In this document: positions 4,795-39,936 of the stretch, piece by piece
Layout of the letters: each line of letters opens with the position of its first letter
How positions within the stretch are numbered: the first letter of the stretch is position 1
NCBI GenBank assembly: GCA_001780035.1
Contig: MFEY01000005.1
Location: forward strand, 40,354 to 104,353
DNA: 64,000 bases
From: Candidatus Doudnabacteria bacterium RIFCSPHIGHO2_12_FULL_48_16
GTDB lineage: Bacteria > Patescibacteriota > Doudnabacteria > UBA920 > O2-02-FULL-48-8
Reading direction: 5' to 3'
The notes under the pieces: generated by a model
What the model saw: the letters and a program-made list of their open reading frames with translations, nothing else
Databases searched by the model: none
What the model was told of the DNA's origin: nothing
Translations under genes and position numbers: made by a program

Positions 4795-4977
4795 GTGAGA
4801 GCAAAGACTCATACGGAAGCAAGGCCGATCGAAGACACGAGCACCAACAAATCGGTCGAGGAACTTCTCGCCGAAGCCGTGCCGCCGACGAAGCACAGGA
4901 TCCCGTGGATCCTCATCACCTTCATCCTGATCGCCGCGGGCATCGCGCTCGGTATTTTCAAGGGTGTGCTCTCGTAG
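4795..4977 (+). CDS. small membrane protein
   Basis: 60 aa with a C-terminal TM helix. GGAGG lies 6 nt upstream of the ATG, and a terminator hairpin follows. Confidence 0.4.
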   Translation: MRAKTHTEARPIEDTSTNKSVEELLAEAVPPTKHRIPWILITFILIAAGIALGIFKGVLS

Positions 4978-5003
4978 CCGGCCGTGCGGCCGGCGCCCTT
5001 TAG

Positions 5004-5040
5004 AGGGTCGGGTGGACACATGTGCCGCCCGACCCTGTTT
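5004..5040 (+). terminator. intrinsic terminator
   Basis: agggtcgggtgg-acacatgtg-ccgcccgaccct hairpin followed by gttttgttt. Confidence 0.5.
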
Positions 5041-5067
5041 TGTTTATATGTTAAAATTAGTCCATAT

Positions 5068-5172
5068 ACCCCGTTAGAAGTAAAAAAATAGTAACTGCTC
5101 TCTCGGAGGTGAATAATTTTTTATATCTTAATTCGATTATATTTTAATGTCTTCAGAAACTTCTAACGGGGT
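5068..5172. repeat. inverted-repeat (MITE-like) element, copy A
   Basis: Perfect 14-bp TIRs: accccgttagaagt at 5068-5081 and acttctaacggggt at 5159-5172, around an AT-rich 77-bp core. The right TIR overlaps the 5' end of the GT2 gene. Confidence 0.7.
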
Positions 5173-5872
5173 GAAATACCAAAAAGTCAGCATTGTCATT
5201 CCCGTTTACAACGAACGAGCAACGATTGAGCAGGTCTTGGCTCAGGTTCGGGCGGCGTCGACTCTTGGTTTGGAAAAAGAAATCATTCTGGTGGATGATT
5301 GTTCCACCGACGGCACGAGAGAATTTTTGGCAACTTTAATCGATGAAAATTTTAAAGTTTTTTTGCAGGATAAGAACACGGGCAAGGGCGGGGCGCTCCA
5401 TTATGGATTTGAACAAGCCAGCGGGGATATCGTGATCATCCAGGATGCGGATTTGGAGTATGATCCGGCCGATATCCAGAAAATTTTAGAGCCGTTTATG
5501 AAAAATGGCGCCGAGGTCGTCTACGGATCCCGCTACCTTCAGCCGAGCGTCGGATTAAAATTTTGGCACAGTTTTTTTAATAAACTCTTTACTCAAGTTA
5601 GTAACCTTTTGATCGGCCAGAAAATTACCGACATTATGACTTGTTACAAAGCTTTTAGCCGTAAGGCGATTGGCAGTTTCGTCCAAAAGCTGCAATCGCA
5701 GCGATTTGGGTTTGAGCCGGAAGTGACGGCGCGGGTCAGCCAGGCCGGTTTTAGAATTGTCGAAGTTCCGGTCTCATACCGCCCGCGGTCGCACACCGAA
5801 GGTAAGCATATGAATTTAAAAGGCCAGCTAGAATCGCTGGCCGCCTTGATCAAATACAGTTTATTTGGTTAG
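5147..5872 (+). CDS. family 2 glycosyltransferase (Dpm1/polyprenol-phosphate mannose synthase-like)
   Basis: VSIVIPVYNE...DDCSTDGT...IQDADLEYDP is the GT2 DxD signature. The native start may be the GTG at 5171 (MKYQKVSIVIP), directly after the TIR. The listed ATG at 5147 lies inside the element. Confidence 0.85.
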   Translation: MSSETSNGVKYQKVSIVIPVYNERATIEQVLAQVRAASTLGLEKEIILVDDCSTDGTREFLATLIDENFKVFLQDKNTGKGGALHYGFEQASGDIVIIQDADLEYDPADIQKILEPFMKNGAEVVYGSRYLQPSVGLKFWHSFFNKLFTQVSNLLIGQKITDIMTCYKAFSRKAIGSFVQKLQSQRFGFEPEVTARVSQAGFRIVEVPVSYRPRSHTEGKHMNLKGQLESLAALIKYSLFG

Positions 5873-10889: not shown

Positions 10890-12131
10890 ATGGAGAGGGG
10901 AGTTCTAAGCAAAAGAAACTCAAAGCAAATGGAACCGTTAGCATCAAAGATTCGACCCAAAAACCTGGAAGAATTTATCGGGCAAGCGCATTTGGTCGGC
11001 CTTGATAGGCCGTTAAGAATCGCCATCGAGAACAAGCATTTGTTTTCCTTCATTTTTTGGGGACCGCCGGGCGTGGGCAAGACGACCCTGGCCAAAATTT
11101 ATGCCAAAGCTCTGAATGCCGACCTGTTTGAATTGTCCGCAGTTTCATCTGGTAAAGATGATGTCCGGCAGATTGTGAACCCCGTTAGAAGTAAGACGCC
11201 TGGGACGTCTGCCGATATGTTTACATACCGGACTTCTAACGGGGTGAATGCCAACACGGCCAAACCGAAAGTCTTGTTTCTGGACGAAATCCATCGGTTC
11301 AACAAAGCCCAGCAGGATTACTTGCTGCCGTTTGTCGAAAAAGGAGAAATCACTCTGATCGGCGCAACTACGGAAAATCCCAGCTTCGAGATTATCCCGG
11401 CGTTGCTGTCTCGCTGCCGGGTGTTTGTCCTGCATGAATTTTCGGCCGAAGAAATGTCAAAAATCATTGACCGCACCGGAGTCAAGCTCGATAAAAAATC
11501 CAAAGAATGGCTGGTCAATATGGCCAACGGCGATGCGCGGCAGGCAATCACTATGTTGGAGAATACGGTTAATTTTTACGGCAAAGCTACAGTTGAGAAC
11601 CTGAAGAACACGCTGCAGAGCAAATTCCTGCGGTTCGATAAGAAGGGCGAAGAGCATCACAACACGATTAGCGCGTTTATCAAATCCATGCGGGCCAGCC
11701 AGCCGGATGCAGCGCTGTATTATTTGGCCCGGATGATTGAATCAGGCGAGGATCCGAAATTTATTGCCCGGCGCATGGTCGTGTTCGCATCCGAAGACAT
11801 TGGATTGGCGCAACCCACGGCTTTGGTCGTCGCCAATGATGTGTTCCGCGCCGTTGAAACTATAGGCTTGCCGGAGGCGGCGGTCAATCTGGCGCACGGC
11901 GTGGCGTATCTGGCTTTGGCCCCTAAGAATCGCGATTCTTACAATGCTTATTATGAAGCGCTCGATGACGTCAAAGAGCTGGGCAATCTGCCGATCCCGA
12001 TGATGATCCGCAATGCCCCGACCAAGCTTATGAAGGATTTGGGCTACCACCAAGGTTATGAATTGTATCCAAAGGAAGATCTTTTGCCGGAGCAGCTGAA
12101 AGGCAAAAAATATCTGAAGCGAAAAAAATGA
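10890..12131 (+). CDS. rarA: replication-associated recombination protein A (AAA+ ATPase)
   Basis: FWGPPGVGKTTLA, LFLDEIHRFNKAQQD and GATTENPSFE. It carries a 23-aa in-frame insertion, which is repeat copy B. Confidence 0.9.
   Translation: MERGVLSKRNSKQMEPLASKIRPKNLEEFIGQAHLVGLDRPLRIAIENKHLFSFIFWGPPGVGKTTLAKIYAKALNADLFELSAVSSGKDDVRQIVNPVRSKTPGTSADMFTYRTSNGVNANTAKPKVLFLDEIHRFNKAQQDYLLPFVEKGEITLIGATTENPSFEIIPALLSRCRVFVLHEFSAEEMSKIIDRTGVKLDKKSKEWLVNMANGDARQAITMLENTVNFYGKATVENLKNTLQSKFLRFDKKGEEHHNTISAFIKSMRASQPDAALYYLARMIESGEDPKFIARRMVVFASEDIGLAQPTALVVANDVFRAVETIGLPEAAVNLAHGVAYLALAPKNRDSYNAYYEALDDVKELGNLPIPMMIRNAPTKLMKDLGYHQGYELYPKEDLLPEQLKGKKYLKRKK
11179..11245. repeat. inverted-repeat (MITE-like) element, copy B, in-frame inside rarA
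   Basis: Perfect 14-bp TIRs: accccgttagaagt at 11179-11192 and acttctaacggggt at 11232-11245. The flanking dinucleotide GA is duplicated, so 67+2 = 69 bp adds 23 codons. Confidence 0.7.
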
Positions 12132-14125: not shown

Positions 14126-14251
14126 AAAAAATGAGTTTCTTCCGCCGTCGCTAAAGCTATGGCGGATCCGCCGAAGCTTTACGCGTAGGCGGAGACCCGA
14201 ACGTCCAAGGGCCAGAAATACAGCGCAATTTGGTATCGAGTCGATTATTTA

Positions 14252-14347
14252 TCCCGTTTAGAAATTTTTCTAAAAAGGGGATTGATTAAGATTAACCGTT
14301 GTCGTAATTAGCGATAATTGTATGCTAATCACTTATTTCTAACGGGA
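14252..14347. repeat. inverted-repeat element, copy C
   Basis: tcccgtttagaaat at 14252-14265 pairs with atttctaacggga at 14335-14347. The element sits in the divergent intergenic region between the helicase and the GT-C gene. Confidence 0.6.
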
Positions 14348-14444
14348 TTTAACTAACAACTAATTATACTCCTTTTTGGCGATTTTGTCAACCCTCACAA
14401 CAAATCCTCGCTAAAAGCGATAAATTGGTGCTAAAATATTAATC

Positions 14445-30330: not shown

Positions 30331-31080
30331 CTACTTCTCAACCACAATCATGGCCTTGGGCCGGCCTGTTTGGTCTTCGTGATACCCCGTCTTGTAATCG
30401 ACAAGGGCATTAAAGAAAATATTGTAGCTATATCTGTAGCCTTTGCCATTGCGTGTGCCAGGATCATTGGTTATGACTTGTTTCTTCGCCTCATCGTATC
30501 CTATAACCACGAGCATATGCGTCAGTGGCCCGGCACCGGTGAAATTAGGGTTATTGAGCTTCTGGCCATTGGCCGGAGTAATGACTAACTTCCCTGCCGC
30601 CAGTTCTTTTTTGATGTCTTCTATAGTGATCCCTGACTTTACAGTATGGTTATCGTAGTGATAATAATCCGTCATGAGCTTGGCCGTATCGGCTGCGCCC
30701 AGGTCCAGGTAGTTACCATAAGTTTCTTTTTCAAACTCAGACATGGCAATAATGGTTTTTTCCGCTTCAGAAGCTGAGATGGAAGTTTTCCCTTGGGTCC
30801 AGGCGTAGGCCATGATCAACGAAGCCTCTTCGCAACCATCCTGTTGGCGCGGATCAGACCAGTTGGCCGTCGGCGCTTGGGCAGTAAAAGGCACGGTCAA
30901 GAGGACATAACCCGGCAAGGCGCTCGCCTGCCCGGCCGGAGTTGACGGGCTTTGGCTAGCGGGACTCGTTTCGTTCTTGGGTTGATCCTTGGGCTGATCA
31001 TTTGGTTTGGGTTTGAATATCAAAACCGCTGCCAAAGCCAGAGCGACCATGATCAAAATTGTTAAATTGATTTTTTTCAT
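30331..31080 (-). CDS. secreted C39-like (BtrH/YvpB-type) cysteine peptidase domain protein
   Basis: Signal peptide, a Cys in QQDGCEEAS and a His in THMLVVIGYD. Confidence 0.55.
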   Translation of the reverse strand: MKKINLTILIMVALALAAVLIFKPKPNDQPKDQPKNETSPASQSPSTPAGQASALPGYVLLTVPFTAQAPTANWSDPRQQDGCEEASLIMAYAWTQGKTSISASEAEKTIIAMSEFEKETYGNYLDLGAADTAKLMTDYYHYDNHTVKSGITIEDIKKELAAGKLVITPANGQKLNNPNFTGAGPLTHMLVVIGYDEAKKQVITNDPGTRNGKGYRYSYNIFFNALVDYKTGYHEDQTGRPKAMIVVEK

Positions 31081-31176
31081 CCCGTTATGATTAGTTAAAT
31101 TTAATTAACATTTTATGGCGCTGCATTGATTATAATTTATTAGTATATTGCCCGCTATGTCAAATGTCTAACGGGA
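31080..31176. repeat. inverted-repeat element, copy D
   Basis: tcccgttatga at 31080-31090 pairs with gtctaacggga at 31166-31176. It fills the intergenic gap exactly, and the left TIR abuts the ATG of the C39 peptidase gene. Confidence 0.55.
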
Positions 31177-31177
31177 T

Positions 31178-32335
31178 TCATCTGCGCAACTGCTTAATTA
31201 TTTTAGTTAATATATTCACGGCGGATTTAATTTCCGACGGCTTGGTATTCTGCCCGAGCGTCAATCTGATTGTGGCGGCATCGGCTTGGCCGATTTTGCC
31301 CAGCGCCTCGATGACATGGGACGGCACGGATGAGCCGGAGACGCAGGCCGAACCGGTAGAGGCGGCAATGCCAGCTAGATCCAAAGCGGTCATCAGGGCA
31401 TCCTGGTCGACTCCATAAACAGTCAGGCTGGCATTGTTGGCGGCCCGCTCCTCCCCTGTCGGGCCATTTAATTCAACGTTTTTGATTCTTAGAGCGTTAT
31501 CAATCAGCAAATCGCGCAGCGTGGAAATTTTTCGCGCTTGATCCTGCCGATTTTCCAATGGGCCCAACAGCTCGATGGCTTTGGCAAAGCCCATAATTCC
31601 AGCGGTATTTTGGGTCCCGGGGCGTTTGCCGTATTCCTGTGAGCCGCCAAACGTCAGATTTGCCAGTTTAAGGCCGGATTTGATGTAGAGGGCTCCTATT
31701 CCCTTCGGGCCATAAATTTTGTGCGCGGACAGTGTTAAAAGGTCGCAGCCGAGTTTTTCCACGTTGCAATTGTAAAACTGGGCGGCCTGGACCGCGTCGA
31801 CGTGGAAGATAGGTTTGAGGCCCTTGATTGATTGGCCGATTTCTCGGATCGGCAAAATGGTACCGATTTCGTTGGAAACAAAAATCACGCTCACAAGCTC
31901 GGTATTTTTTTTCACGGCTTTTAAAATTTGATCCGGCCTAATTTTGCCGTTTTTGTCCGGCTTGACGAAGGTGGCCTCAATCACTCCCCTCTTTTCGAGT
32001 TCCTTAACCGTATTGTAAACGGATTGGTGTTCAAGTTGCGTGGTCACGACGTGCGGTTTGGATTTATTTTTTTGAACCGCATAATTGATAACGCCTTGAG
32101 TGGCCAGGTTGTTGGCTTCGGTTGCCCCGGAGGTGAAAACAATTTCCTGCGGTTTGGCGTTTAGAAATTTGCCAACTGCAGCGCGCGCAAAGTCAATTTT
32201 AGCTCGCGCATTCTGACCTTCCCGGTGGGAGGAACTCGGATTGCCAAAGTGCTGCAATTCAAAATCCCGCATGTGTTGGGCAACGTGCGGGTTGACCGGG
32301 GTTGTGGCAGCATGGTCCAAATAGATTCGTCTCAT
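31178..32335 (-). CDS. cysteine desulfurase (NifS/IscS family)
   Basis: MRRIYLDHAATTP N-terminus and the PLP-lysine context SAHKIYGPKGIGALY. The track start at 32428 is probably an over-extension. Confidence 0.9.
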   Translation of the reverse strand: MRRIYLDHAATTPVNPHVAQHMRDFELQHFGNPSSSHREGQNARAKIDFARAAVGKFLNAKPQEIVFTSGATEANNLATQGVINYAVQKNKSKPHVVTTQLEHQSVYNTVKELEKRGVIEATFVKPDKNGKIRPDQILKAVKKNTELVSVIFVSNEIGTILPIREIGQSIKGLKPIFHVDAVQAAQFYNCNVEKLGCDLLTLSAHKIYGPKGIGALYIKSGLKLANLTFGGSQEYGKRPGTQNTAGIMGFAKAIELLGPLENRQDQARKISTLRDLLIDNALRIKNVELNGPTGEERAANNASLTVYGVDQDALMTALDLAGIAASTGSACVSGSSVPSHVIEALGKIGQADAATIRLTLGQNTKPSEIKSAVNILTKIIKQLRR

Positions 32336-34965: not shown

Positions 34966-36108
34966 ATGAAAAAATTTAAAGTATTCGGTCTTGCAGCGGT
35001 CGTGTTGGCATTGGCCGCTTCTCCGGTTCTGGCCGCGGAGTTTATTGCGCCGGAAAGCAAAACAGATGCCAATATCTCGACTCTGCAGCAGGACGTGCAT
35101 AAAAATCTTTATATTGCGGGCGCCGCGGTGACGATCAACGGCAAAATCCAGGGCGACCTGGCTGCGGCTGGCGGCGTCGTGACTGTGAACGGTGATGTCG
35201 AAAAAGGCCTATTGCTCGCCGGCGGCAATCTGAATCTCAACGCTGCTGTGGGTGAAAATGCCCGCATCGCCGGCGGCAATGTTTCCATCAATGCTCCGGT
35301 CGGCGGCGATTTGCTGGTCGGCGGCGGGAACATTACAATTGCCCAAAAAGCCAAAGTGGGTGGCGATCTTGTTATCGGCGGGGGCAATGTCTTGCTGGAC
35401 GCGGATGTGGCCGGCAATGTGAAAATCGGCGGGGGCAATGTTACAATCAATGGCAAAGTCAGCGGCAACGTCGAGGTTATGGCCAATCAAAATCTAACGT
35501 TCGGCCCGGCCAGTCAGGTTCTGGGGAAAGTTAGCTTCAAGGGTCCGCAGGAAGCGGTAGTCAAACCAGGCGCGAAGGTGGGCGTGATTACTTACACTCA
35601 TATCAACAAGCGAGTGGCCCACCGGAGCGGCATAATCGGATTGTTGATCATTGGCAGCTTGTTTAAACTGATTATGCTGCTGGTTGCGGCCGTAGTTTTG
35701 GCCTGGCTCTTGCCCAGTAAGATTTCAGCCGTTGTCGCCGAAGCCAAAGCCAAGCCCTGGCACAGCCTAGGATTCGGGGTCTTGGTGGTAATTCTCTCCC
35801 CCATCTTGGGAGTGATTCTGATGGCAACGGTTCTGGGGATTTATCTGGGAATGATTGTGTTTATGATCTTTGGCCTGCTTATGATTATTTCGGCCATTCT
35901 CTCTCTGTTCTATGTCGGTAACCAGGTTTGGAGCTGGTATCACCGCGATGCAATCGCCAATCGCTGGCGCGATCTAGGGCTTGGCGCGCTGATCACGCTG
36001 ATTCTCGGGTTTATCCCGATCGTGGGCTGGGTAATCCTCCTGGTCATCTGGCTCATTACGCTGGGGGCGCTTAAAAGATACACTTATCAGGAAGCCTTCG
36101 GTAAATAA
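34966..36108 (+). CDS. secreted/membrane protein with beta-helical GGN repeats (bactofilin/DUF4097-like) and C-terminal TM domain
   Basis: Signal peptide, a repeated xGGNVxIN/VGGDLxV pattern, and four C-terminal TM helices. Confidence 0.5.
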   Translation: MKKFKVFGLAAVVLALAASPVLAAEFIAPESKTDANISTLQQDVHKNLYIAGAAVTINGKIQGDLAAAGGVVTVNGDVEKGLLLAGGNLNLNAAVGENARIAGGNVSINAPVGGDLLVGGGNITIAQKAKVGGDLVIGGGNVLLDADVAGNVKIGGGNVTINGKVSGNVEVMANQNLTFGPASQVLGKVSFKGPQEAVVKPGAKVGVITYTHINKRVAHRSGIIGLLIIGSLFKLIMLLVAAVVLAWLLPSKISAVVAEAKAKPWHSLGFGVLVVILSPILGVILMATVLGIYLGMIVFMIFGLLMIISAILSLFYVGNQVWSWYHRDAIANRWRDLGLGALITLILGFIPIVGWVILLVIWLITLGALKRYTYQEAFGK

Positions 36109-38243: not shown

Positions 38244-39161
38244 TTATACCTTCAAGTAGCGGCGCATGGCAATACTGGAAGCAATGGCCGAAAGGACAAT
38301 GCTGGCGGCGAGATTCACCAGCAGGATGCGCCAGAACAGAGCGCTGATCAGGCTGGAGCCCAGAACCTGAATTGAAAGGAATTGCTCAATCCGGCCGGAC
38401 AGCAGAATCAGCAGAATCAGGATAATGAGCGAAGTTAGAACCGTGGCGATCAGGGAATAAAGAATGCCCTCGATCATAAACGGCCAGCGGATATACCAGT
38501 TGGTGGCGCCGACGAGGCGCATGATCTCCACTTCCTCCCGGCGGTTGTAGATCGTGAGGCGGATGGTATTGAAAGTTACCATAACAGTTACGACCATAAA
38601 GATGGCGGCCAGGAGGATGCCGAACCTGGTAATGAACTGGATGATCCGATAAAGCTTGTTGATGACCGTCTGGTTGTCGCGGACATTTTGAAAGTAAGGC
38701 GCGTAGCGCTGGCCCTTGAGGGTGTCGTAAATTCGGGAATAATCGGTCAGATCGTAAGCCTTCACCGCAATGGAACCGGTTAAGGGGTTTTCAGCGTCGG
38801 TAAATTCATTTAAGCTCTCAATCCAGTTGGGTTCGTTTTGGTGGATCAGCTTAAACTGCGCGATCGCTTCTTCTTTGGTCGTGTAATTGACTTCCCTCAC
38901 GCCCTCTAGGCCTTTTATTTCCGTAATGACGTTCTGGACTTCCTTATCCGTGGTTTGCTGGTTGAAATACGCGGTCACCACGCCAATCTTATCTGTGGAA
39001 TTTTGGATGGCGACCGAGGTTAAAGCATAAAGGACAATTATTATGGAAATAATAAACAAGGTAATGGCGACCATGGAAGTGGCCGCGATTGAAATCCAAA
39101 TGTTCCGCAGAAAATTTGTTAAACCCGATTTAATCAAGCGTTTCGTCTCCAAGGTTGTCAT
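38244..39161 (-). CDS. ftsX: cell division ABC transporter permease FtsX
   Basis: FtsX topology and the FtsX C-terminal motif region, directly downstream of ftsE. Confidence 0.85.
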   Translation of the reverse strand: MTTLETKRLIKSGLTNFLRNIWISIAATSMVAITLFIISIIIVLYALTSVAIQNSTDKIGVVTAYFNQQTTDKEVQNVITEIKGLEGVREVNYTTKEEAIAQFKLIHQNEPNWIESLNEFTDAENPLTGSIAVKAYDLTDYSRIYDTLKGQRYAPYFQNVRDNQTVINKLYRIIQFITRFGILLAAIFMVVTVMVTFNTIRLTIYNRREEVEIMRLVGATNWYIRWPFMIEGILYSLIATVLTSLIILILLILLSGRIEQFLSIQVLGSSLISALFWRILLVNLAASIVLSAIASSIAMRRYLKV

Positions 39162-39162
39162 A

Positions 39163-39258
39163 TCCCGTTAGAAAATTGATAATAATATGATATTTTTTTC
39201 GATGCTTATATTATAAATTTAATGCTGTTAATTTAACTTTGAGCTATTTCTAACGGGA
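39163..39258. repeat. inverted-repeat element, copy E, exactly filling ftsE-ftsX gap
   Basis: tcccgttagaaaat at 39163-39176 pairs with atttctaacggga at 39246-39258. One end abuts the ftsE stop and the other abuts the ftsX ATG. Confidence 0.6.
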
Positions 39259-39936
39259 TCATAGGACGTATTTGCCTTTCTCCTGGTCGTAAATGATTTC
39301 ACCTTTTTCAATGGTGATCACGCGTTTTTTGACGCTGTTGACCAGCTCCTTGGCGTGCGTAGCCAGAATGACCGTGGTTCCCGTTTTATTGATCTTCATC
39401 AGCAGCTGTAAAATTTCCCAGGCATTAATCGAATCCAAGTTTCCCGTCGGCTCGTCAGCCAAAAGCAGCACCGGCTTGTGCACCATGGCGCGCGCAATTG
39501 CTACGCGTTGTTTTTCGCCGCCGGACATTTGGTGTGGGAAAGCATGAGCCTTTTCCTGCAAGCCGACCAGTTCCAGAACCCGCGGCACTTCTTTTTTGAT
39601 CATGGCCGCCGGTTCCCCGGAAACTTCCAGGGCAAAAGCGACGTTTTCGAGAGCAGTACGGTTGGGTAGAAGCTTGATGTCTTGGAACACCACGCCGATT
39701 TTGCGGCGCAGATATGGAATGTCCCGGGCTTTGATTTGGGCCACGTCAATGTCATCGATCAGGATCCGGCCGCTGTCCGGCTTTTCTTCCCCGATAATCA
39801 GGGAGATGAGCGTGGACTTGCCGGCGCCGGATTGCCCGATCAACGATAAAAAATCCCCTTTGTGGATGTCGATGCTGATATTTTTCAGCGCAATGATTTG
39901 GGGATATGTTTTTGTTACTTTATCGAAACGAATCAT
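39259..39936 (-). CDS. ftsE: cell division ATP-binding protein FtsE
   Basis: GQSGAGKSTL, MSGGEKQRVAIARAM and LLADEPTGNLD. Confidence 0.9.
   Translation of the reverse strand: MIRFDKVTKTYPQIIALKNISIDIHKGDFLSLIGQSGAGKSTLISLIIGEEKPDSGRILIDDIDVAQIKARDIPYLRRKIGVVFQDIKLLPNRTALENVAFALEVSGEPAAMIKKEVPRVLELVGLQEKAHAFPHQMSGGEKQRVAIARAMVHKPVLLLADEPTGNLDSINAWEILQLLMKINKTGTTVILATHAKELVNSVKKRVITIEKGEIIYDQEKGKYVL

Follow-up and report, generated by a model that had tools for sequence, protein, structure and literature searches.

The window (the whole 64,000-nt stretch of DNA analysed here, from Candidatus Doudnabacteria bacterium RIFCSPHIGHO2_12_FULL_48_16) contains a gene for a GT2 glycosyltransferase whose open reading frame is placed in public records at 5147–5872 on the plus strand (241 amino acids). 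The 5' end of this frame lies within a 103-nt inverted-repeat element, copy A (5069–5171, plus strand), whose arms, ACCCCGTTAGAAGT at 5068–5081 and ACTTCTAACGGGGT at 5159–5172, form a perfect inverted repeat of 14 nt with 100% complementarity. The element is of the C...G type: C5069 is followed by the core CCCGTTAGAA (5070–5079), and at the other end TTCTAACGGG (5161–5170) is followed by G5171. The annotated ATG (5147–5149) falls between the two arms, and the first eight codons read from it, MSSETSNG, are copy A sequence; the translation from this ATG is MSSETSNGVKYQKVSIVIPVYNE. Directly 3' of TTCTAACGGG lies a candidate GTG start on the plus strand (5171–5173), in which G5171 is the terminal purine of the element and TG belongs to a copy of the target site. 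The right copy of this 4-bp target site, TGAA, was assigned to 5172–5175 (plus strand) from the family-wide statistics of target-site duplications (TSDs) and from the sequence itself. The product read from the GTG, MKYQKVSIVIPVYNE, is 233 residues long and fits the N-termini of orthologues, M-x-(x)-Y-K/Q-K-V-S-I. The original prediction, namely that the 5' end of the GT2 gene derives from the right terminal inverted repeat (TIR) of an element enclosing the annotated ATG, and that an alternative GTG follows immediately after TAACGGG, was borne out in both parts.

The expected left TSD copy of copy A (5065–5068) reads TATA and is degenerate relative to TGAA; its history is not unambiguous, a 2-nt deletion and substitutions both being compatible with the flank. 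Copy A is atypical among the copies of the window in having the right TSD copy only. Its predicted RNA fold has an energy of -28.6 kcal/mol (z = -3.85). No Shine–Dalgarno sequence was found at a usable distance before either ATG 5147 or GTG 5171; a GGAGG at 5105–5109 lies 37 nt upstream of ATG 5147. This ATG, which was chosen by gene callers, is in frame with GT2, with zero stops before GTG 5171. A further frame, opening at the predicted transcription start at 5064 (AUA UAC CCC GUU...), runs for 27 codons before it meets TAA (5145–5147), which overlaps ATG 5147 as UAAUG; this frame contains no AUG today. Six assemblies of this species, at least 99.9% identical, carry the same alleles in the same orientation. 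A metagenome scan for the copy A junction gave 0 matches, and a 233-residue GT2 protein with a GTG start was looked up in the records, with none on file.

Empty sites at GT2 and the choice of start codon

Five orthologous GT2 loci (L007, L008, L139, L140 and L141; 73–81% protein identity) lack the element. At all five, a terminator-like hairpin with a T-run is followed by a -10-like hexamer (TAAAAT or TAGAAT), exactly 6 nt and an ATG, which falls where the left edge of copy A lies in the window. By-eye alignment of the five upstream regions placed an extended -10-like promoter element, TGTTAAAAT, at 5049–5057 on the plus strand of the window, an element that a consensus promoter scan did not call. 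The hexamer and the 6 nt are both still present in the window (TGTTAAAAT TAGTCC), where ATATA, the element and TGAAATACCAAAAAGTC come next. This retained hexamer with its 6 nt, together with the layout of the empty sites, places the putative ancestral GT2 start codon at the left edge of the element. Judging by promoter geometry alone, the ancestral transcript probably had no leader, and transcription is predicted to start near 5064.

The 120 closest GT2 homologues are mostly 231–235 amino acids long and begin with the N-terminal pattern given above; they start 2–6 residues before VSI(V/I)IP or have unrelated extensions, and the SSETSNG extension was carried by 0 of the 120. By this comparison, the 8-residue extension predicted from ATG 5147 is element sequence and not ancestral. 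The comparison with element-free orthologues envisaged in the original prediction thus came out in its favour, five loci being empty and the longer N-terminus being present in none of the 120 homologues. Its two alternatives, that the element inserted precisely at the start codon or that it donated the start, proved compatible with one another: the five empty sites put the ancestral ATG at the left edge, and across the family (see below) the TG of the TSD and the terminal purine yield a new ATG or GTG, so that both hold.

Because of its fit to the orthologous N-termini and the family-wide junction rule, GTG 5171 is favoured as the probable start of the present GT2 gene. Translation from ATG 5147, with the element exapted as an N-terminal extension of eight residues, is a weaker candidate that we hold to be possible but doubtful. 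Such initiation could depend on a weak leaderless promoter inside the element (GATTAT, 6 nt, ATG), although the promoter scan calls no internal promoter, or on termination–reinitiation via UAAUG, the TAA of the 27-codon frame being positioned to couple translation to ATG 5147 and not to GTG 5171; this upstream frame, however, begins with AUA rather than AUG. ATG initiates more strongly than GTG, the frame from ATG 5147 is stop-free up to the conserved N-terminus, and this start is the public annotation in several records. Set against these points are the lack of the extension in every one of the 120 homologues, the conservation of a purine + TG junction in 62 other gene-start elements among the matches listed, and the many gene-start elements in which the upstream in-frame stretch is closed after a few codons. 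Use of both codons, or of another one, appears quite improbable.

Copies in the window and a family bounded by 13-nt ends

With up to one mismatch allowed, the window contains 7 occurrences of the 11-mer CTTCTAACGGG, where 0.65 would be expected, and 0 of 100 shuffles reached 7. A looser repeat search added one more pair, giving five paired copies (A–E) whose interiors are mutually unrelated. The TSDs are 4 nt long for copies B, C and E and 5 nt for copy D; copy A has the right copy only. Copy B (11180–11244, plus strand; 65 nt, C...G type) lies in a RarA/MgsA-like gene between TGAA at 11176–11179 and TGAA at 11245–11248. Together with one TSD it amounts to 69 nt, or 23 codons in frame, and the RarA open reading frame is continuous; two RarA orthologues lack exactly these 23 residues. 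In the E. coli MgsA structure 3PVS the corresponding site follows the helix that comes after Walker A and precedes the Walker B strand. Copy B, with a fold z of -6.4, is thus an in-frame 23-residue insertion in the predicted RarA protein. Copy C (14252–14347, no strand assigned; 96 nt, T...A type) has a 1-nt insertion in its left arm and TTTA at 14248–14251 and 14348–14351; it is intergenic, between divergent genes.

The two remaining copies are both of the T...A type and on the minus strand. Copy E (31080–31176; 97 nt, TSD TTCA/TGAA), whose arms are slightly degenerate, lies between the stop codon of a cysteine desulfurase-like gene (TGA, 31178–31180) and the ATG of a peptidase_C39-like gene (31078–31080). 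Its junction reads ...TCATAACGGG/ATG with a spacer of 0, the A of the ATG being the terminal base of the element. Copy D (39163–39258; 96 nt) separates the stop codon of ftsE from the ATG of ftsX. A direct repeat of 5 nt, TCATA (TATGA on the gene strand), stands on either side of copy D (39158–39162 and 39259–39263), whose junction at ftsX reads ...TTCTAACGGGAT/ATG, with a 2-nt spacer after TAACGGGAT. The arrangement of TAACGGG followed by a start had been expected at both copies, and it is found there, without a spacer at E and with the 2-nt spacer at D. In the relative L136 the iscS-like/C39-like junction is an uninterrupted overlap, tcATGAaaa, and in L136 and L137 ftsE and ftsX overlap as cctATGAcc, with the element absent. 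When copy D or E is removed along with one of its flanking repeats, the ATGA overlaps of the relatives are restored; by this reconstruction, the two copies split stop/start overlaps that are intact in relatives. No element copies were found in about 80 kb of sequence from relatives. TATAAT-like hexamers are present on the gene strand within copies D and E.

To define the family, 185,579 species genomes were scanned for CCCGTTAGAA-N55-85-TTCTAACGGG, which gave at least 119 loci, where chance alone would account for about 17. Hosts among the listed matches include many Patescibacteria classes, Omnitrophota, Planctomycetota (one anammox genome included), Deltaproteobacteria, Thermodesulfovibrionia and KSB1, and the element is also present on eight viral contigs. 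The family statistics refer to about 148 elements among the matches listed. In this set the TIR is exactly 13 nt long, Y-CCCGTTAGAA-R-N, with arms 87–100% complementary over positions 1–13; the variable positions 1, 12 and 13 are complementary in 92%, 92% and 87% of copies, respectively, and complementarity is at chance level from position 14. Interiors have no detectable relative for 124 of 158 copies, and core lengths peak at 76, 92 and 100–104 nt (both among the matches listed). The copies measure 65–103 nt in the window and 75–131 nt elsewhere, with mini-forms of 27–60 nt, and have no coding capacity of their own.

With the outer Y/R pair counted as element, an exact 4-nt TSD was present in 83 of 146 copies among the matches listed, and three of four positions matched in 15 more. 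The TSD consensus in the same set is T-N-N-A, TGAA (27), TAAA (22) and TCCA (9) being the commonest and TTAA not the commonest. A purine precedes the TSD at -1 in 72 of 90 elements away from gene starts, again among the matches listed, and the target is therefore given as R/TNNA/Y, a motif re-formed at both junctions. A 6-bp TSD, with RTNNAY duplicated, was ruled out: flanks of the C...G type read ATGAA-C on the left and G-TGAA-N on the right, so the outer bases belong to the element. Tandem and nested insertions also occur. In size, TIRs, TSD and empty sites (those for A, B, D and E), the last a sign of past mobility, the family is MITE-like, and full-length homology between copies, which is a MITE criterion, is absent. 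A literature search on the repeat sequence and on MITEs in Patescibacteria returned nothing relevant, and Rfam 15 gave no match at the window elements or in 18 loci.

The same pairs might instead be host regulatory sites (invertons, operator pairs or an RNA stem for processing or stability) that were never mobile. Highly conserved repeats around variable interiors, the location at gene boundaries, the strong predicted hairpins and the TATAAT-like hexamers of copies D and E are all in keeping with such a role. As an account of origin it already fails, given the precise empty sites in relatives, the 4-bp target duplications, the nested and tandem insertions and the position of copy B within a coding region, and we consider it very improbable overall. 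An inverton was ruled out by the empty sites, the TSDs, the single orientation in all six assemblies and the presence of zero recombinase genes in about 70 kb around the copies. Selection on the stem at the RNA level was also dropped: stem mismatches on the sense strand are without G–U bias (3 GU, 6 AC and 9 other), and the Rfam search was negative.

For a mobilizing enzyme, the genes of the window were searched for a transposase or recombinase and the fetched loci for a TIR pair 0.3–3 kb apart enclosing a transposase, with none found in either case. No transposase of the piggyBac or IS1380 type was detected in 1.1 Mb of element-bearing loci, which represent a small share of each genome. An IS1380-like enzyme was set aside for the fetched loci, where tblastn with the ISEcp1 transposase against this 1.1 Mb gave a single, spurious match, antisense to a P-type ATPase gene. 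The sole Y1 transposase gene seen is in the relative L137, which has no element copies. REP/REPIN elements mobilized by RAYT were excluded on the grounds that the arms are not self-palindromic, that a TSD is present and that the Y1 gene occurs where copies are absent.

Element junctions at start and stop codons

Among the matches listed, the terminal purine + TG opens a reading frame of at least 60 codons in 64 of 148 elements (43%), against a per-position background of 1% for such starts (p about 1e-85). The starts at the right junction comprise 42 ATG and 20–23 GTG codons in this set, three of these cases being in-frame read-throughs like copy B. For elements of the C...G type at gene starts, 13–14 of 20 among the matches listed keep an ATG in the left flank and have GTG at the right junction; five loci (L020, L039, L076, L096 and L119) read ATGAA/C...G/TGAA. 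At these junctions a GTG start has taken the place of an ATG start, just as is proposed for GT2. Many of the targeted genes have TATAAT 6–9 nt 5' of the old ATG. On the other side of the element, the left TSD copy holds the stop codon of the upstream gene in 25 further elements among the matches listed. RTG is thus regenerated at the right junction and TGA retained at the left, and since the one rebuilds a start and the other keeps a stop, gene boundaries are sites at which neither gene is destroyed.

Such an association could arise without mechanistic meaning, through an RTGAAY-like target preference that happens to resemble ATG-AAx combined with purifying selection against gene disruption. 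The R/TNNA/Y consensus also holds away from gene starts and, among the matches listed, about 37 of 137 elements lie between genes without touching an ORF boundary and a few are intragenic in frame, as this explanation would have it. The copies with an exact TGAA TSD were compared with generous expectations. Among the matches listed, 22 of 27 such copies are at gene starts, whereas gene starts would be expected to account for no more than 18% of non-disruptive TGAA sites (p = 1.5e-12) and no more than 31% of RTGAAY sites (p = 1e-7). An insertion that separates the start from its promoter or ribosome-binding site should, if anything, do more harm than one elsewhere in the spacer. We regard a coincidental link as conceivable, though unlikely.

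An equally tentative view is that of a cross-phylum class of elements that actively targets translation starts and stop/start junctions. In that case, the cue could be DNA that is melted or bent at leaderless promoters or in initiation regions, the ends may have become "gene-boundary safe" through evolution, and mobilization would fall to a transposase, possibly piggyBac-like, that needs the 13-bp hairpin-forming ends alone. The right repeat carries TAA in a second frame and, for duplications that begin with TGA, a TGA in the third; under active targeting, these stops in the other frames would deliver ribosomes from a retained upstream ATG to the new start. A family-wide coupling to an upstream open reading frame was dropped: the frame of the retained left ATG is stop-free across the interior in 46% of cases versus 22–36% in controls (p = 0.03 and 0.25), a difference too weak to sustain it. 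An element-borne promoter or Shine–Dalgarno sequence was likewise dropped, neither orientation contrast being convincing (-10-like hexamers in 33 elements forward versus 25 reverse; Shine–Dalgarno-like motifs in 8 versus 3).

Proposed insertion at GT2 and comparison with known systems

Taking these results together, we consider it likely that a mobile hairpin element inserted where the GT2 gene starts and that its own last base now supplies the G of a rebuilt GTG start codon. In the proposed sequence of events, a short, non-coding, hairpin-forming DNA element integrates at R/TNNA/Y and duplicates the central 4 bp. At GT2, which would ancestrally have been leaderless (-10 hexamer, 6 nt, ATG), the target would have been the TGAA in the start region, ATG AAA.... 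The right TGAA would then abut the terminal G to give GTG AAA TAC... and a product beginning MKYQKVSI, and the promoter-proximal TGAA copy would since have decayed to TATA. The present mRNA most likely has its 5' end about 4 nt before the element, with the 103-nt hairpin as its leader, and is most likely translated from GTG 5171; initiation at the alternative ATG 5147 would add eight harmless residues. Recurrence in the family would follow from the same geometry, a TG-initial TSD beside the terminal purine regenerating the ATG or GTG of the downstream gene and the left TSD copy preserving the TGA stop of the upstream gene. For the chemistry we infer a cut-and-paste transposase of the DDE type making 4-nt staggered cuts. 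The covarying end positions and the dispensable interior suggest that the two ends must pair for mobility.

Bacterial MITEs such as the Correia elements of Neisseria, ERIC, RUP, Nezha and Chunjie are likewise short, non-coding and dispersed, with TIRs, TSDs and stable hairpins, and are found near or inside transcription units. The Correia element has TA as its TSD. In the present family, by contrast with these MITEs, the 13-bp ends alone are conserved and interiors are non-homologous even within one genome; the same ends recur across many phyla, and 43% of elements among the matches listed lie exactly on a start codon regenerated by the junction. The TSD also differs, being 4 bp (TNNA) here and 9 bp in Chunjie, an element described as inserted in an operon without disrupting it (PMC3184786).

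The ends offer a second comparison. A 4-bp T..A duplication is known from piggyBac as well, and the ends of the family, (Y)CCCGTTAGAA(R)(N), partly resemble those of piggyBac and of ISEcp1. PiggyBac duplicates a 4-bp TTAA target and has 13-bp terminal repeats beginning with CCC (CCCTAGAAAGATA), and the TSD of IS1380 is 4–5 bp. For ISEcp1, a member of the IS1380 family, the end was checked in sequence and is CCTAGATTCTACG. IS1380 has been treated as a prokaryotic relative of piggyBac (PMC10140906). Unlike piggyBac, the family has TNNA rather than TTAA as its TSD and an extra Y/R pair outside the CCC. The resemblance is a lead towards kinship with piggyBac/IS1380, the match being short and partial and such as could be due to chance.

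Copy B in RarA behaves like the Rickettsia palindromic elements (RPEs), which are palindromic and mobile, insert in frame in genes and end up in the translated host protein (PMC10969869). RPEs are about 100–150 bp long, occur in Rickettsia alone and have a conserved sequence and peptide per family, whereas in the present family in-frame intragenic copies are a minority and the ends alone are conserved. The mycobacterial MIRUs lie between operon genes, and their start and stop codons overlap those of their neighbours. Neisseria REP2 and the Borrelia upstream repeats lie directly 5' of genes and supply promoter, ribosome-binding site and ATG (PMC3184786). MIRUs, REP2 and the Borrelia repeats are not bounded by TIRs with TSDs, are specific to lineages and contribute an entire initiation region; in the present family, one terminal base completes the codon. 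Parts of the behaviour of the family thus have precedent, in-frame insertion in the RPEs and operon-compatible or start-donating repeats in Chunjie, MIRUs and REP2. A cross-phylum family defined by these 13-bp ends is apparently undescribed, no description having been found in the literature, and the same search yielded no account of a transposon with a junction that systematically restores a start codon.

For annotation, the consequence is that in any genome carrying the element a start can be called within it, as here (241 versus 233 amino acids), and among uncultivated bacteria hundreds of N-termini may be off by a few residues. The family also provides dozens of natural constructs in which a stable hairpin with a 13-bp stem is set directly against a start codon, often in ancestrally leaderless genes, and these would form a test bed for initiation. 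Through the in-frame insertion in RarA and the split ATGA overlaps, proteins and operons appear to have been reshaped rather than killed, and junctions that regenerate start and stop codons suggest how selfish DNA may persist in compact genomes with almost no intergenic space.

Start signals and open frames at copies A and B

In the region 4795-5045 of the window, upstream of the glycosyltransferase gene GT2, an ORF of 60 aa whose product is predicted to associate with membranes carries a good GGAGG Shine-Dalgarno sequence and has counterparts in two relatives (loci L007 and L008). Between this ORF and the GT2 promoter, and close to the latter, lie a terminator-like hairpin (5005-5035) and a T-run. 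The organism therefore has both Shine-Dalgarno-led and apparently leaderless starts. Copy A of the element, at the start of GT2, is crossed from the predicted transcription start by a 27-codon open frame (window 5064-5149; AUA UAC CCC GUU...), the stop codon of which (TAA, 5145-5147) overlaps the annotated GT2 ATG at 5147 as UAAUG. The arrangement may be either a remnant or a functional device for coupling.

Copy B (11180-11244) lies within the gene for a RarA/MgsA-like AAA+ ATPase (10929..12131), where it forms an in-frame, stop-free insertion of 23 codons; the site falls after the helix that follows Walker A and ahead of the Walker B strand. The right repeat of copy B reads T-S-N-G-V, in the same frame as in the annotated GT2 extension.

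Two further features of the window were observed. Four direct repeats of ~35 nt each, spaced by 51-57 nt (35248-35441), lie within ORF 34966..36108, assigned to Pfam DUF8173 in the gene table, and indicate a repetitive segment in the encoded protein. On the minus strand at ~42.5-47.5 kb, a methyltransferase gene is flanked by two genes of the dCTP-deaminase/dUTPase family; this region holds a 565-aa Thy1 (ThyX-type) gene, whereas ThyA and DHFR are found there in relatives' loci L136 and L137.

Internal half-sites and composite insertions

Among the element-bearing loci from other genomes (L009-L127), many elements contain a third, internal half-site of the ACGGG type, ~21-33 nt from one end (e.g. 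L036:3823-3895, L055:6015-6090 and L119:1171-1246); 32 such half-sites were observed, against 8 expected. Pairing of the internal half-site with the near arm could form an alternative small hairpin. In the interiors of the start-associated elements in these loci, purines account for 55% of coding-strand bases (standard error 1%), and therefore either orientation or post-insertion evolution is not strand-neutral.

Elements were also found inside or adjoining other elements, as nested and tandem copies (L027:7674-7895, L081:434-642, L032:1139-1321, L071:2335-2437 and L096:894-1053), consistent with the R|TNNA|Y target being recreated at each junction. Locus L019 (2167-5033) contains a 2.7-kb segment that codes for a secreted protein of 686 aa and has a copy of one 92-nt element on either side; the two copies are in inverted orientation, as are the sequences flanking them. 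The same unit recurs on other contigs of its MAG (L016 and L060) and could represent a segment that is composite or invertible.

Elements in viral contigs

The element is present in eight viral contigs from IMG/VR (L128-L135), five of which share one interior. Phages are a possible vehicle for its spread between phyla.
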